Origin: an uncultured Mycoplasmatota bacterium
GTDB lineage: Bacteria; Bacillota_I; Bacilli_A; RF39; UBA660
Direction of reading: 5' to 3'
DNA: 64,000 nt
Assembly: GCA_947570175.1 (NCBI GenBank)
Contig: CANOTJ010000005.1
Location: forward strand, 175-64,174
Part shown: positions 36,872-60,089 of the stretch, piece by piece
How positions within the stretch are numbered: position 1 is the first letter of the stretch
How the letters are laid out: the number at the start of each line of letters is the position of its first letter
Notes under the pieces: generated by a model
Told to the model about the DNA's origin: nothing
Databases searched by the model: none
What the model saw: the letters and a program-made list of their open reading frames with translations, nothing else
Made by a program: the position numbers and the translations under genes

Positions 36872-37831
36872 TTAAAGATGAATTTTTTCCGTTTTATTAC
36901 TTTTGATATATTGTTTTAAAAAATTCTTTTTATCTTGGTCTTCTTCAAATAAAAAATCTGCCAGTACGAATGATTTCTCTATATTCAATATTCCGTAATG
37001 ATCAATATCACCATCTGCAATACTTCCTTCTCTTAAATATTTGTGAATAATATCCCAATTAGATGAATAATTGGAATGAAGTAAAAAGTTTAAGAAAAAT
37101 CGAATATTATTTTGCCATATAATGGGATCTAAACTTCCGTTTGGACAGCGAAATTCAATTGTATTATCCTTTATATTTTTTCCTAATATAAAGGCTCCAG
37201 AAAAATCAACTGCCCTTCTTTTATAAAAATCGATTTGACGATTCATACTATGAAGACTCACACTCTGAAGATTAATTCTATGATTTCCAAGTAAATAATG
37301 ATTAAAAGTAGTTGCTAAAGGAGCTGCTGTTTCTATGATCTGCTCTCTATAAGTATCCATTTGTCCATAACCAAATCGGTAAATAATATCTTCAAAAATA
37401 ATCCAAAGTTTTAAAAATTTCTTTAAACTTTTTTTATTTTTTAAAACTTGTGTTCCAATATGAATATGTCCTCCACATTTAGAATTAATACTAGCTTTCT
37501 GTTCTAATAAGAAATGGCACATCTTCTCTATTTGCTTCCAATACTTTGGTTCATCACAAAAGACTTTCGAAGCCATTTCCCCACCATATATATTTCCCAC
37601 TCTTTCTTGTAATTCATTTAAACTACTATCATGATAAAAATTCCAATGTTCTTTAAACTCTTCTGTTAAATTTGCTTCTACCTGCCTATGTAAGGCTTTA
37701 ACAAACTCAATTTCAATTCCAAAAGTATATTTAGAATCTATATCTATCGTAGATTGATAAGATATTACATGATTTCTTAATTCTTCTAAAAATTGTTTTT
37801 GATCTAATTCATTCAATTTAGTTAATAACAC
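36872..37831 (-). CDS. glutamine-synthetase-like putative amidoligase (Amidoligase_2/GCS2-like carboxylate-amine ligase), tentative
   Basis: 319 aa with GIEIEF (GxExE), CGGHIHIG (GxHxHxG-like) and TIEFRCPNG (E-x-R) motifs, in the order expected for GS-like ligases. Confidence 0.45.
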   Translation of the reverse strand: MLLTKLNELDQKQFLEELRNHVISYQSTIDIDSKYTFGIEIEFVKALHRQVEANLTEEFKEHWNFYHDSSLNELQERVGNIYGGEMASKVFCDEPKYWKQIEKMCHFLLEQKASINSKCGGHIHIGTQVLKNKKSLKKFLKLWIIFEDIIYRFGYGQMDTYREQIIETAAPLATTFNHYLLGNHRINLQSVSLHSMNRQIDFYKRRAVDFSGAFILGKNIKDNTIEFRCPNGSLDPIIWQNNIRFFLNFLLHSNYSSNWDIIHKYLREGSIADGDIDHYGILNIEKSFVLADFLFEEDQDKKNFLKQYIKSNKTEKIHL

Positions 37832-37871: not shown

Positions 37872-38516
37872 TTATTCATCAAGCAAATCACTACGTTTGA
37901 TAATAAATGTCTTATTATTTTTATAAAAAGCATAAAAAATATCTTCTACTTTTAAATTTTGTTTTTTTAACATCTGATTTAACCATTTTTGATCTTTCTT
38001 AATTTCCTTTAATACGTGAAGATCAATCGTTCCATCTAAAATTAAGGGAAGCGGATATTCTTTTGTGTTTTGAAATACAGATAAACTACCATTTGTTTCT
38101 AATACAGCGTAATCAACCTCCTCTAAACTTTGAACTCCCTTTTCTCGTAGTTGGCTAATTAAATCATCCAACGTATATCGTAACTTTGTCATAACATTAA
38201 ATTTTACTTTTCCATCTTTAATGATAACACTAGGATGCCCATCAATAAATGTTCGAATTTTATTATTCTTCATACTAATATAACTAAGAAATATTTCACA
38301 AATAACTAAAATAACAATGGGAACAATTGACATAAGAATAGATCGCTCAACATTTTCAATAGAGATCGCAGCCAGTTCTGCAATCAATACTGTTACGATT
38401 AAATCTCCTATTCCAAGTTCTCCAATTTCTTTTTTCCCCATTAAGCGATACACAAAAATAATAAAGAAATAAAGAAAAAATGTTTTTAAAGCAAGAATTA
38501 TATACATTTTCATCAC
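37872..38516 (-). CDS. DUF421 (YetF/YdfR-like) membrane protein
   Basis: N-terminal TM helices with GELGIGDLIVTVLIAELAA. C-terminal soluble YetF-like domain. 214 aa. Confidence 0.7.
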   Translation of the reverse strand: MMKMYIILALKTFFLYFFIIFVYRLMGKKEIGELGIGDLIVTVLIAELAAISIENVERSILMSIVPIVILVICEIFLSYISMKNNKIRTFIDGHPSVIIKDGKVKFNVMTKLRYTLDDLISQLREKGVQSLEEVDYAVLETNGSLSVFQNTKEYPLPLILDGTIDLHVLKEIKKDQKWLNQMLKKQNLKVEDIFYAFYKNNKTFIIKRSDLLDE

Positions 38517-38581: not shown

Positions 38582-38950
38582 ATGAAATATGCGAAAGATT
38601 TAGGAATCTCATTGTTATTTATTATAGGAAGTTTTATTATTTTGACATTCTTAATGACAACACTAAACTATTTTAATTTATTTTCTAGCGGTCTTGTTTC
38701 TGTTTTTAAAATTATTATTCCAATCTTTTCTTTATTCCTTGGAGGATTTATAATTGGTAAAAAAAGTTCGAAAAAAGGATGGCTAGAGGGTCTAAAATTG
38801 TCTCTTATCTTTACAATCATTTTAATTTTATTTAATTTATTGGGATTAGGAAACAAAATAGAATTTAAAAATATTGTATACTATATCATTATTATTGCTT
38901 CCTGTATGTTTGGAGGAATGTTAGGGATTAATAAAACAGATACGAAATAA
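38582..38950 (+). CDS. small membrane protein (4 TM segments), hypothetical
   Basis: 122-aa hydrophobic ORF with an AGGAGG RBS upstream. Confidence 0.5.
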   Translation: MKYAKDLGISLLFIIGSFIILTFLMTTLNYFNLFSSGLVSVFKIIIPIFSLFLGGFIIGKKSSKKGWLEGLKLSLIFTIILILFNLLGLGNKIEFKNIVYYIIIIASCMFGGMLGINKTDTK

Positions 38951-39021
38951 AGCAAAGAAAGCTTTATTTTTTGTACAATCATTTAAATAAACAAAAAGTT
39001 TTATCGTTATGATAAAACTCT

Positions 39022-40770
39022 CTACCCCTTATTTTCTATTACTTGATTTACAAATTCAATAAATTTTTCTTGTGATACAGTGATAGTCTCGGTTGTTCCA
39101 AATCTACGATAACTAATCGTTTTATTATCTACTTCATTTTGACCAAGAATAATCGTAAATGGAATTTTTCTTGTTTGACTCTCACGCATTTTATAGCTAA
39201 GCTTTTCATTTCGATGATCTAATTCTACACGGAAGTTATCCTTTAGTAAATCATAAATTTCTTCCGCATATTTCAAATGGTACTCATTATTAACAGGAAT
39301 AATATTCATTTGAATAGGAGTCATCCAAACTGGTAATACACCCTTTGTTTCTTCTAAATAGTAAGCAATAAATCGATCAATTGTTCCAAATACTGCCCTA
39401 TGAATAACAACTGGGGTTTTCTTAATACCATTTCTATCTACATATTTCAAATCAAACTTAGCTGGCAAACAAAAGTCTAATTGACATGTCGATAATGTGT
39501 ATTCATTTCCAACTGCTGGCTTGACTTGTACATCCAATTTAGGTCCATAGAAAGCCGCTTCTCCGATTTTTTCAGTATAAGGGATTCCTATATCATCAAG
39601 TACTTTTCTAAGTTTATTTTCAGCATTTTCCCACATTTCATCATCTGGATGATACTTTTCAGTATCCTCGGGATCTCTAAGAGATAATTCGAAGCGATAA
39701 TCTGTTATTTTTAGTTCCTGATAAGATTCTAAAATTAAATTTACTACGCTTTTAAATTCTTCCTCTATTTGTTCAGGAGTTACAAATAAATGGGCATCAT
39801 TTTGACAAAAAGATCGTACTCTTTCTACTCCCTTTAATGCGCCACTTGCTTCAAATCTACAATCTCTTGCAATTTCTCCAATTCGAATTGGTAAATCTTT
39901 ATAGGAATGTAATTTATTGGAATAAATCATCATATGATGAGGGCAATTCATAGGACGAAGTACGAATTCTTCCCCCTCTACTTCCATTTTAGGAAACATA
40001 TTTTCTTTATAGTGATCCCAATGGCCACTTGTTTTATATAATTCTACGTTTCCTAAAGGTGGAGTTAAAACATGTTGGTAACCAAGTTTTTTTTCTTTAT
40101 TTTTGATATAATTTTCTAGATTTTCCCATATAATATATCCGTTTGGTAAATACATAGGAAGGCCTTTTCCAACTAAATCATCCATCATAAAGATTTCTAA
40201 ATCTTTTCCAATTTTTCTATGATCACGAAGTTTCGCTTCCTCTAACATTTCCAAGTGATTTTTTAAATCTTCTTCATTTTCAAAACAAATACCATAAATT
40301 CTTTGCAACATTTTATTTTTAGAATCATTCTTAAAATAAGCTCCACTTACCTTGAGTAATTTAAAATATTTCATAGCTTTTGTTGTTTTCATATGAGGCC
40401 CACGACATAAATCAATAAAATCATCCTGTTTATAAGCAGAGATAATCGTATTATCATCCATTCTTTCAATTAAATCTATTTTATAAGGATCTTCTTGAAA
40501 CATCTCTAATGCCTCTTGTTTAGATAGTTCTATTCGATTAATGTATTTATCGCCTTTAGATATTTTTTTCATTTCTTTTTCAATTCTAGGTAAATCTTCC
40601 TCTTTGATAACTTGATTTCCTAAATCAATATCATAGTAAAATCCTTCTTCTATTACAGGTCCTACCCAGAATTTAGCATTAGGGTACAAATGCTTTACTG
40701 CATGGGCAAGTAAATGAGCACAACTATGATTTAAAATATTTAATTTCTCATTTTCTTTTATATTAATCAT
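39022..40770 (-). CDS. thrS: threonine--tRNA ligase lacking the N-terminal TGS (N1) domain
   Basis: 582 aa. Begins at the editing-domain HxxxH motif (HSCAHLLAHAV at residue ~15). Class II aaRS motifs (FRLRPMNCPHH, GALKGVERVRSFCQNDAHLF, GPKLDVQV) and C-terminal anticodon-binding domain. Start overlaps the stop of the upstream ORF (TAATG). Confidence 0.9.
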   Translation of the reverse strand: MINIKENEKLNILNHSCAHLLAHAVKHLYPNAKFWVGPVIEEGFYYDIDLGNQVIKEEDLPRIEKEMKKISKGDKYINRIELSKQEALEMFQEDPYKIDLIERMDDNTIISAYKQDDFIDLCRGPHMKTTKAMKYFKLLKVSGAYFKNDSKNKMLQRIYGICFENEEDLKNHLEMLEEAKLRDHRKIGKDLEIFMMDDLVGKGLPMYLPNGYIIWENLENYIKNKEKKLGYQHVLTPPLGNVELYKTSGHWDHYKENMFPKMEVEGEEFVLRPMNCPHHMMIYSNKLHSYKDLPIRIGEIARDCRFEASGALKGVERVRSFCQNDAHLFVTPEQIEEEFKSVVNLILESYQELKITDYRFELSLRDPEDTEKYHPDDEMWENAENKLRKVLDDIGIPYTEKIGEAAFYGPKLDVQVKPAVGNEYTLSTCQLDFCLPAKFDLKYVDRNGIKKTPVVIHRAVFGTIDRFIAYYLEETKGVLPVWMTPIQMNIIPVNNEYHLKYAEEIYDLLKDNFRVELDHRNEKLSYKMRESQTRKIPFTIILGQNEVDNKTISYRRFGTTETITVSQEKFIEFVNQVIENKG

Positions 40771-41279
40771 TAATAATCACCTCTCTTTTTATAACGATTT
40801 CGTCCAGTTTGTATATAGGTTTTTTGGCGATTTACTCGTACGTTGATTTCAAACACCTCTTCTTCTGGATAACTCTCTACAATATTTCCTAACCAGTCCT
40901 CTTCTAAATTATTTTCTTCTAAAATAGATTCTCTAATTGCACGCAGCTTATCATAATTTTTCTCTCTTTGTAATTCATTAAGAAGTTTTCCAAAAGATAA
41001 AAGAAGTGGATTTTCATAAGGAATTACTTTTCCTTTTTTCTTCTTCTTAGTTTCTTCTCTAACAAGTACATAAGTTCCATCACTTAATTTTTGTTTATTA
41101 ATTTTAGAAAAACTTACTTTAATTGGCAATTTATATCCCTTTTCTCTTAAATACTTATTCATTTCATAATGAGTTATTCTTTTTTCTTCCCCCTCATACT
41201 CTACATTTAAATATGTACTCATAAATTCTCTAATTTCAATCGTTTGTTTCAAACTAATCATGGTTTTATTTTTTGACAT
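40770..41279 (-). CDS. hypothetical Lys-rich protein, first gene of the T-box/thrS operon
   Basis: 169 aa. No TGS-like beta-grasp signature. Translationally coupled to thrS. The T-box terminator lies immediately upstream of its RBS (GGGAGGAGAGG). Confidence 0.55.
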   Translation of the reverse strand: MSKNKTMISLKQTIEIREFMSTYLNVEYEGEEKRITHYEMNKYLREKGYKLPIKVSFSKINKQKLSDGTYVLVREETKKKKKGKVIPYENPLLLSFGKLLNELQREKNYDKLRAIRESILEENNLEEDWLGNIVESYPEEEVFEINVRVNRQKTYIQTGRNRYKKRGDY

Positions 41280-41284
41280 ATAAC

Positions 41285-41505
41285 CTCTCCTCCCTAAAAA
41301 AAACGCTTCCTTATATTAAGGAGCGTTTGAACGCGGTACCATCCTACCTTGTAACTTAATTTTTGATAACGGAAATCTCCGGAAATCTCTTTCGAGTTCA
41401 ATTCATGGGTAGTAATTATCAAATGTTATATTAGTTCACACCAACCACTAACTCTCTTATAAAGTAACTTTTTTGATAATTTTGTCCCAATCAAAATTTT
41501 TAAAT
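41285..41505 (-). ncRNA. T-box riboswitch leader
   Basis: On the minus strand: AGAGA/AGAGAG GA-motif region, T-box sequence AAGGTAGGATGGTACCGCG (consensus AAnnnGGGTGGnACCGCG), and terminator hairpin AAACGCTCCTT-aatat-AAGGAAGCGTTT followed by TTTTTTTT. Candidate promoter TTGACA-17-TAGAAT on the minus strand at 41514-41542. Confidence 0.65.
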
Positions 41506-41703
41506 CTAATTTTATTCTAATCTGAAAATATCATTTTGTCAATATAAATCCCCTCATTTTTTTAGATAATGAAAAAATGAGTTATAATTTCAAATGTCTC
41601 GTGGTATAATATGAATTTATGAATAGTAAAATATAAAAACAATATATCACAAAACATGACATGAAAAGAAAAATGTGCTATATTGTAGAAGGAGGAGATA
41701 ATT

Positions 41704-42285
41704 TTGAAAAAGTTTTTATTCAGTATGACATTATGTCTACTAGCTGTTCTATCGCTTACTGGATGTAATCAAGAAACTACGAAAAAAGTGAAAGATTCTA
41801 ACCAAGAGAAAGTAGAAGAAAAAAAATTAAAAGGAAAATGTTCTGCCGTAGAATGTATTCAAAAAATTACACCAGAAAATACAGTAGAAGAGGTAAATGA
41901 AATCATTGGAGTAGATGGTGTATTAAAAAATGAAAATTCTCGAGAATACGAATATGATTTAGGAAATGATGAGAAAATCACTTTGAAATTTTCTTCTGAT
42001 AATACTTCTACTATCGTTGCAGATTTTAACAAAAATGATGTAGCTGATAAAAAAGTAGATCTATCAAATTTAGAGGATTTAAAACCAAAAGTAAATGCTG
42101 GAATCACTTATGATAATTTCAAAAAAGAAATTGGTGATGTAGATGGAGTACTAGTAGAGAAATCAAAAACAAGTGTTAAATACATGTGGGTATCCAAAAA
42201 AGGTGGAAATGTAAGAGCATCTTTTAGAACAAGTGATAACATGTGTAGATTCTTTACAGGAATTGGCGATAGAACAAGCAACTAA
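41704..42285 (+). CDS. putative lipoprotein (LTGC lipobox), hypothetical
   Basis: 193 aa. Signal peptide plus Cys at LSLTGCNQ. GGAGGAG RBS. TTG start as in the ORF track. Confidence 0.55.
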   Translation: MKKFLFSMTLCLLAVLSLTGCNQETTKKVKDSNQEKVEEKKLKGKCSAVECIQKITPENTVEEVNEIIGVDGVLKNENSREYEYDLGNDEKITLKFSSDNTSTIVADFNKNDVADKKVDLSNLEDLKPKVNAGITYDNFKKEIGDVDGVLVEKSKTSVKYMWVSKKGGNVRASFRTSDNMCRFFTGIGDRTSN

Positions 42286-60015: not shown

Positions 60016-60089
60016 GGGTCTATAGCCAAGTGGTAAGGCGTGGGACTGCAACTCCCTGATCGTTGGTTCAAATCCGACTAGGCCCTCCA
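60016..60089 (+). tRNA. tRNA-Cys (anticodon GCA)
   Basis: Cloverleaf folded by hand. Acceptor stem GGGTCTA/TAGGCCC, anticodon stem GGGA/TCCC with loop CTGCAAC, T-arm GTTGG-TTCAAAT-CCGAC, and encoded CCA. Confidence 0.85.

Follow-up and report, generated by a model that had tools for sequence, protein, structure and literature searches.

What does a protein do whose gene stands between a threonine-sensing T-box leader and thrS, the gene of threonyl-tRNA synthetase (ThrRS)? The question is raised by a locus on the minus strand of a 64,000-nucleotide (nt) stretch of DNA from an uncultured Mycoplasmatota bacterium (assembly GCA_947570175.1, contig CANOTJ010000005.1), which is called the window here and has a G+C content of 27.9%. 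From 41542 to 39022, this strand reads as one compact unit of a promoter-like site, a T-box leader, an open reading frame (ORF) of 169 amino acids (aa), named ORF169 in the following, and thrS. A gene downstream of a Thr T-box would be expected to serve the charging of tRNA-Thr or the synthesis or uptake of threonine, and hypothetical proteins under T-box control form an acknowledged group (PMC2494555). We found that ORF169 is a member of a protein family that occurs, in the loci examined, only between a Thr T-box and thrS, and that this family is optional, being dispensable for the ThrRS without N1/TGS domain that is encoded next to it. Based on these observations, we tentatively favour the idea that ORF169 is an accessory factor of the ThrRS/tRNA-Thr system.

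Control of thrS by a T-box is textbook knowledge, and the locus resembles the T-box-controlled thrS genes of B. subtilis and other Firmicutes (RF00230) in its promoter, its Stem I with a Thr specifier, its T-box sequence, its terminator/antiterminator and the gene under control. A preliminary description of this DNA, made from the sequence alone, had proposed such a leader on the minus strand with a T-box sequence and a terminator, and all of these are borne out. The leader RNA (41296..41512, minus strand) comprises a Stem I with specifier loop, Stem II-like and Stem III hairpins, the T-box sequence and the terminator, as delineated by RF00230, by a model of our own and by covariation. The Rfam model RF00230 matches 41316-41503 with 94.2 bits (E 2.3e-19), a narrow margin over the gathering score of 93. 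Because RF00230 at its gathering threshold recovered only 2 T-boxes among 19 related loci, a clade-specific covariance model, R1, was built from an alignment of 20 orthologous leaders; it scores 187 bits on the window leader (41296-41512) and between 87 and 195 bits on all orthologous leaders. A survey of thrS with one genome per GTDB species returned 80 close thrS relatives, 78 of them assessable for architecture, and an R1 leader lies 5' of thrS in 75 of these 78. The pairing is supported by compensatory changes in 30 of 39 pairs (RNAalifold, 20 leaders). Over the 75 orthologous leaders, 93.8% of cells pair, compared with 38-49% when the partners are slid, and 34 of the 39 pairs show compensatory (double) changes; the observed values were reached by none of 500 shuffles.

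The single-sequence fold closes Stem I with GGG/CCC and places ACU-A on the 3' side of the internal loop, and together with the alignment this identifies the specifier codon as ACU (Thr), followed by the purine A, in the context UU-ACU-A / CCC (41411..41413, minus strand). The specifier of B. subtilis thrS is ACC. The position reads ACU in 74 of the 75 aligned leaders; the lone exception, the leader of locus L047 (2434-2652), reads AAA, which may be a sequencing, assembly or alignment quirk or a shifted loop, and its close relative L067 has ACU. The conserved T-box sequence AAGGTAGGATGGTACCGCG on the antiterminator side (41332..41350, minus strand) falls in columns that are invariant in the 20 leaders, with AGGATGGTACCGCG invariant across all of them. 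It is followed by an intrinsic terminator hairpin, AAACGCUCCUU-AAUAU-AAGGAAGCGUUU with a U-run (41296..41328, minus strand), seen in both the minimum free energy and the centroid folds; its stem (helix 8) carries compensatory changes across the leaders, and a simple terminator scan did not flag it. Upstream, the proposed TTGACA-17-TAGAAT promoter is present as a sigma-70-type site (41514..41542, minus strand) that agrees with the consensus at 11 of 12 positions. Within 3 kb, 20 promoter-like sites were counted against 17 expected by chance, and this one scores highest; because the count is close to the chance expectation, we regard it as a mere consensus match, and the related locus L102 keeps a near-identical site, TTGACA-17-TAAAAT. 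Overall, model scores, covariation and specifier indicate that the T-box leader is genuine and Thr-specific, and thus a leader predicted to let RNA polymerase read through the terminator only with uncharged tRNA-Thr.

The controlled synthetase is itself reduced. The product of thrS (39022..40770, minus strand, 582 aa) was assigned with Pfam, NCBIfam and an alignment to the E. coli enzyme; it matches the Pfam families tRNA_SAD, tRNA-synt_2b and HGTP_anticodon without any match to TGS, and exceeds the cut-off of the thrS equivalog TIGR00418 (664 bits vs 383.65). Its first residue corresponds to residue 59 of E. coli ThrRS, and the editing motifs HSCAH...H and CRGPH are retained, so that the enzyme lacks N1/TGS and has an intact editing domain. 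The N1 (TGS) domain of ThrRS has been described as regulating or modulating editing (PMC5909460). The 80 thrS relatives, from metagenome-assembled genomes or isolates, are labelled Bacilli, Erysipelotrichaceae, Tenericutes/Mycoplasmatota, Clostridia or Lachnospiraceae, and in each of the 80 an in-frame stop closely precedes a common MINIKE... start; TGS-less ThrRS is therefore the rule in this group.

ORF169 (40770..41279, minus strand), delimited from the ORF list, its homologues and an AlphaFold2 model, consists of a core of about residues 10-91 with a Lys-rich hairpin (70-89), followed by a helical hairpin (96-122), an acidic stretch (124-148) and a basic tail (149-169). With 13.6% Lys, no Cys and an isoelectric point of 9.4, it carries net charges of +4 on the hairpin and +6 on the tail. 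Its start is preceded by a strong Shine-Dalgarno sequence, GGGAGGAGAGG, read 11 nt past the U-run of the terminator (41284..41294, minus strand). The Shine-Dalgarno sequence of thrS (AGAGAGGTGAT) lies within the last codons of ORF169, whose TAA shares bases with the thrS ATG as TAATG (40768..40786, minus strand). Measured on a pair in which the related locus has 86% ORF aa identity, dN/dS is 0.18 for ORF169 vs 0.04 for thrS. Judged from these sequence features, ORF169 is a true gene that purifying selection maintains, and it forms a genuine bicistronic operon with thrS. Beyond thrS, an A+T-rich hairpin, GUUUUAUC-AUAAC-GAUAAAAC followed by UUUUUGUUUAUUU (38985..39020, minus strand), is a putative operon terminator recognised by eye only; the terminator scan, which demands at least 3 G-C pairs, does not report it. 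The preliminary description was thus right about an uncharacterised Lys-rich ORF between leader and thrS, about its TAATG coupling and about the ThrRS without TGS/N1 that retains its editing domain.

The same description had called the ORF an orphan, which it is not. A word-indexed search returned 23 relatives, and an exhaustive profile search of 1.84 billion representative proteins extended the family to 137 or more clusters of 50% identity, mostly of 130-185 aa; none of the 137 is fused to a ThrRS. The long matches P0094, P0151 and P0153 were dropped as spurious members because they look like repeat proteins. Near-invariant positions of the family are S9, F19, T36-H37, V73, Y88-x-N90-P91, R116, L120 and N150-R151. 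Where databases name such proteins they label them hypothetical, and our literature search found nothing on the ORF169 family or on a TGS-less ThrRS with an upstream partner. From the matches obtained, the family is undescribed, fast-evolving and confined to uncultured gut Bacilli. Some members are associated with an extra uncharacterised domain of about 150 aa. In L081 (2054-2998) this domain stands alone as a 151-aa ORF that follows the T-box and precedes the family gene, and in L064 (2181-2981), L080 (2199-2990), P0107 and P0115 it is joined to the family protein as an N-terminal fusion, giving proteins of 263-272 aa. In these fused forms, the family hidden Markov model (HMM) also matches part of the helical module within the N-terminal region, before the core.

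Linkage of the family to thrS was examined from both sides. Starting from the ORF, 12 distinct family proteins, ranging from the window's own down to roughly 26-37% identity, were all found behind a T-box motif and, wherever the contig extends, directly 5' of a TGS-less thrS, with an intervening 69-aa ORF at one locus. Starting from thrS, an iterated family HMM matched in 24 of the 80 species loci, each time immediately 5' of thrS (-46 to +99 nt), and nowhere else in the 80 loci (about 7.7 kb per locus). The distance from stop to start codon is 20 nt or less in 31 of 32 family loci. The order T-box, ORF, thrS is kept though the flanking genes vary, dnaB-dnaI-RNase R being the commonest upstream synteny. 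Homologues hence stand at thrS in every locus examined, that is, in the 24 GTDB species loci and for the 12 further distinct family proteins, and their association with thrS is not random.

The converse does not hold, and the supposition that a TGS-less thrS is always preceded by this ORF fails, since only 24 of the 78 species have it. The slot between terminator and thrS (40770-41295 in the window) is variable: thrS is not the first gene behind the T-box in 59 of the 75 T-box-bearing loci. The T-box is followed by the family ORF and then thrS in 24 of the 78 species, by an MBL-fold hydrolase (PF13483, about 205 aa) and thrS in 14, and by other ORFs and thrS in 21, among them a GNAT protein, RNase R, a 181-aa ORF and several K/E-rich ORFs of 56-107 aa. 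It stands directly before thrS, the plain arrangement of B. subtilis, in 16, and was not detected in 3. The window thus departs from the B. subtilis thrS locus in having a 169-aa gene between leader and thrS that overlaps the thrS start, and in its ThrRS without N1/TGS. Most slot occupants abut or overlap the thrS start. At L027 (456-3008), the Thr T-box (456-666) is followed by RNase R (RNB domain, 774 aa), which overlaps thrS; in many other loci, unlike L027, RNase R lies just upstream of the T-box. At L034 (2466-3008) and in the same region of L035, the 181-aa ORF fills the slot and runs into the thrS start, and it shows no similarity to the ORF169 family or to Pfam, NCBIfam or PADLOC models. 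Separate HMMs of the core and of the helical module recovered known members only, with no cryptic relatives among the other small slot ORFs. On a neighbour-joining tree of ThrRS, computed without support values, the family is scattered in the gut-Bacilli part and absent from the Lachnospiraceae-like and Erysipelatoclostridium branch.

The nature of the protein was approached through its predicted fold. An AlphaFold2 model made with a 71-sequence alignment is confident, with a mean predicted local distance difference test (pLDDT) score of 86 and values above 90 for residues 11-90; the C-terminal acidic stretch and the basic tail are less confident. The predicted elements are helices 16-22, 37-47 and 62-67, a hairpin (70-74/85-89) and helices 96-105 and 109-122, with inter-helix loops of about 14 residues and a Lys-rich hairpin tip that varies in length across the family. 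Searches of Pfam, NCBIfam, PHROG, PADLOC and PDB sequences and a PDB profile search gave nothing credible for ORF169 or the relatives tested (up to 71). In particular, PHROG returned no match for ORF169, and PADLOC, run on eight proteins (seven of the family and the unrelated L034 ORF), gave one weak BrxA match only (E 0.004). An identity as DUF7580 was dismissed at 19 bits, under the cut-off of 27. Foldseek comparison of two AlphaFold2 models with PDB and BFVD gave no match below E 0.2, with template modelling (TM) scores of about 0.2, and hence no significant structural neighbour. Neither ORF169 (at E <= 0.1) nor the 71 family members (at E <= 0.01) match TGS in Pfam, and a split or diverged TGS domain was rejected as the identity of ORF169 in view of this, of the helix-rich model (three helices, hairpin, two helices) and of the phyletic pattern.

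We hypothesize, with less than even confidence and nonetheless ahead of the alternatives discussed below, that ORF169 is an accessory factor, possibly nucleic-acid binding, that is co-made with ThrRS when tRNA-Thr is uncharged. In this scheme, threonine limitation would leave tRNA-Thr uncharged, the T-box would permit read-through, and ORF169 and ThrRS would be produced together. The target of ORF169 might then be the ThrRS/tRNA-Thr system, where it could for instance bind tRNA-Thr or modulate charging or editing; it would rely on a compact alpha/beta core that has a few invariant polar residues, on the flexible Lys-rich hairpin and on the basic tail at the C-terminus. The near-invariant H37, Y88, N90 and R116 suggest a specific binding site. 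Support for an accessory factor comes from the exclusive linkage over deep divergence, the coupling, the basic flexible elements and the few invariant polar residues. Free-standing tRNA-binding cofactors of synthetases are represented by Trbp111 and Arc1p, which have an oligonucleotide/oligosaccharide-binding (OB) fold (PMC11286949). By analogy, ORF169 may be like them in concept, as a small basic protein that could aid the tRNA binding of a synthetase in trans. It is unlike them in its predicted alpha/beta fold with a hairpin, which is not an OB barrel; no tRNA_bind/OB-fold Pfam match was found in ORF169 or the 71 members, and no OB-fold protein appeared among the Foldseek matches.

Several observations weigh against an accessory factor. 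Of the 78 related species, 54 lack the family, and their ThrRS begins with the same residues (MINIKENE...). A comparison of ThrRS sequences brought out no position that convincingly follows the presence of the family: the lowest uncorrected Fisher p is 2e-6 over about 600 columns and appears to be due in large part to one subclade, and no N-terminal ThrRS signature separates family-bearing from family-less species. In the one pair measured, nonsynonymous change in ORF169 is about 6.6 times that in ThrRS (dN 0.073 vs 0.011), and ORF identity falls to 37% where ThrRS identity is still 70%, a high rate for a protein that would be part of a conserved enzyme. The short helix 62-67 is acidic and poorly conserved (KEDI-like), which is untypical of a nucleic-acid recognition helix. 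Furthermore, unrelated genes occupy the same slot; because the MBL-fold, GNAT, RNase R and other ORFs sit equally close to thrS or overlap it, position and coupling are not specific to the family, and its strict linkage could be mere descent from one ancestral insertion.

This last point leads to the strongest alternative, which we consider possible though less probable than an accessory factor, namely that ORF169 is a passenger gene. The slot between T-box terminator and thrS would be permissive, and the family would have entered it once, been inherited with thrS and often been lost or replaced, sharing only its regulation with ThrRS. The displacement of thrS from first place in 59 of 75 T-box loci, by the family (24), the MBL-fold hydrolase (14) or the GNAT, RNase R and other ORFs (21), is in line with this, as are the scatter of the family over the ThrRS tree, its fast evolution and the lack of a signal of co-adaptation in ThrRS. 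However, the action of purifying selection, and a fold that has been conserved through deep divergence, point to a function that is being kept, and of the 137 clusters none examined occurs away from thrS. Retention under Thr-specific control in many lineages also suggests that the regulation matters.

Somewhat less probable again is a T-box-controlled regulator, in which uncharged tRNA-Thr would induce a small winged-helix-like protein that controls other genes by binding DNA, or that acts on another protein. A T-box-controlled regulatory protein has precedent in anti-TRAP of B. subtilis (rtpA/yczA), a small regulatory protein switched on by a T-box that senses uncharged tRNA-Trp (PMC10327191). 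ORF169 is comparable as a small, non-enzyme-looking protein directly under T-box control and made when one tRNA species is uncharged. The two differ in that anti-TRAP is a zinc-binding, Cys-rich protein of 53 residues, whereas ORF169 has 169 aa, no sequence or structural relation to it, and no Cys, hence no anti-TRAP-like zinc site; ORF169 is, moreover, co-translated with the synthetase itself. As for DNA binding, the hairpin and tail are basic, and the recurring Foldseek neighbours, although non-significant, are all winged-helix proteins (PadR, RTP, TFE and the Orc/Cdc6 winged helix). PadR and other winged-helix proteins are of similar size and have three helices, a beta hairpin (the 'wing') and C-terminal helices in the same order as the predicted ORF169, whose topology is nonetheless only loosely like theirs. 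Nevertheless, every Foldseek match has E >= 0.2 and a TM score of about 0.2 (these neighbours spanning E 0.39-8, the top PadR match having E 0.39 and TM 0.14-0.23). The inter-helix loops of about 14 residues do not form a tight turn, no PadR or other helix-turn-helix Pfam match was found for ORF169 or the 71 family members, and the candidate recognition helix is the short, acidic and poorly conserved one. A conserved inverted repeat upstream of the operon was also not found in the family loci: a perfect 10-nt repeat with a 9-nt spacer (CTCATTTTTT / AAAAAATGAG, 41553-41581) lies in the divergent intergenic region of the window, directly 5' of the -35 hexamer, and among the loci tested it is present only in L006, a contig of the same species, and not in L001 or other family loci.

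A more far-reaching form of the accessory-factor idea, which we regard as unlikely, would make the family a new trans-acting subunit of ThrRS, induced by uncharged tRNA-Thr, that binds tRNA-Thr or tunes serine editing under scarce threonine and a raised Ser/Thr ratio, and would make the slot, with this family, the MBL-fold hydrolase and the GNAT protein, a hotspot of interchangeable quality-control factors for aminoacyl-tRNA-Thr. Finally, it is most improbable that ThrRS depends on ORF169 as an obligatory substitute, acting in trans, for the N1/TGS domain that it has lost, a replacement that the preliminary description had entertained: the family gene does always adjoin a TGS-less thrS, is translationally coupled to it, and the missing domain is one described as regulating editing (PMC5909460), but all 80 closest thrS genes are TGS-less and just 24 of 78 species have the ORF, with other genes or nothing in the same slot elsewhere, so that most sister species with the same ThrRS lack the family, and in addition no ThrRS fusion occurs among the 137 matches, no TGS match is seen in Pfam, and the predicted helix-rich fold is not the beta-grasp of the missing domain of about 60 residues.

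The DNA around the operon holds unrelated genes, namely those of an L-lactate dehydrogenase, an M23 peptidase, a DUF3792 protein, a YetF-like protein, an amidoligase and an AP endonuclease, besides one uncharacterised ORF. Downstream of thrS lie the genes of an Amidoligase_2 family protein (36872-37831, minus strand) and a YetF/DUF421 membrane protein (37872-38516, minus strand), which together with the intervening DUF3792 gene (38582-38950, plus strand) form a block kept beside the operon in L001-L004 and L006-L007. On the other side, a divergent 193-aa ORF (41704-42285, plus strand) adjoins the operon in the closest relatives too; its N-terminus (...LSLTGC...) looks like that of a lipoprotein, and Pfam and NCBIfam gave no credible match. 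The sole tRNA of the window is a tRNA-Cys (GCA) at 60016-60089 (plus strand). On the contig that carries P0023, a family member of 37% identity, a PGK RNA motif (RF03040, 67 bits) was found at L005:11615-11706, downstream of the thrS operon by a few kb.

These results describe a new protein family tied to the thrS operons of uncultured gut Bacilli, in a clade where thrS is usually the second (distal) gene of a T-box operon whose first genes are interchangeable, an organisation of which our literature search met no description. Control by a T-box is usually taken as a pointer to gene function, and here a family without a recognisable fold sits only there, in gut Bacilli with a reduced ThrRS. 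The interchangeable first genes may show how genes come under the control of a riboswitch. If ORF169 is a mere passenger, the gain would be one of annotation, with a new DUF-like family and TGS-less ThrRS as the norm in these bacteria; if ORF169 does act on ThrRS or tRNA-Thr, it would represent a new kind of bacterial synthetase accessory factor.

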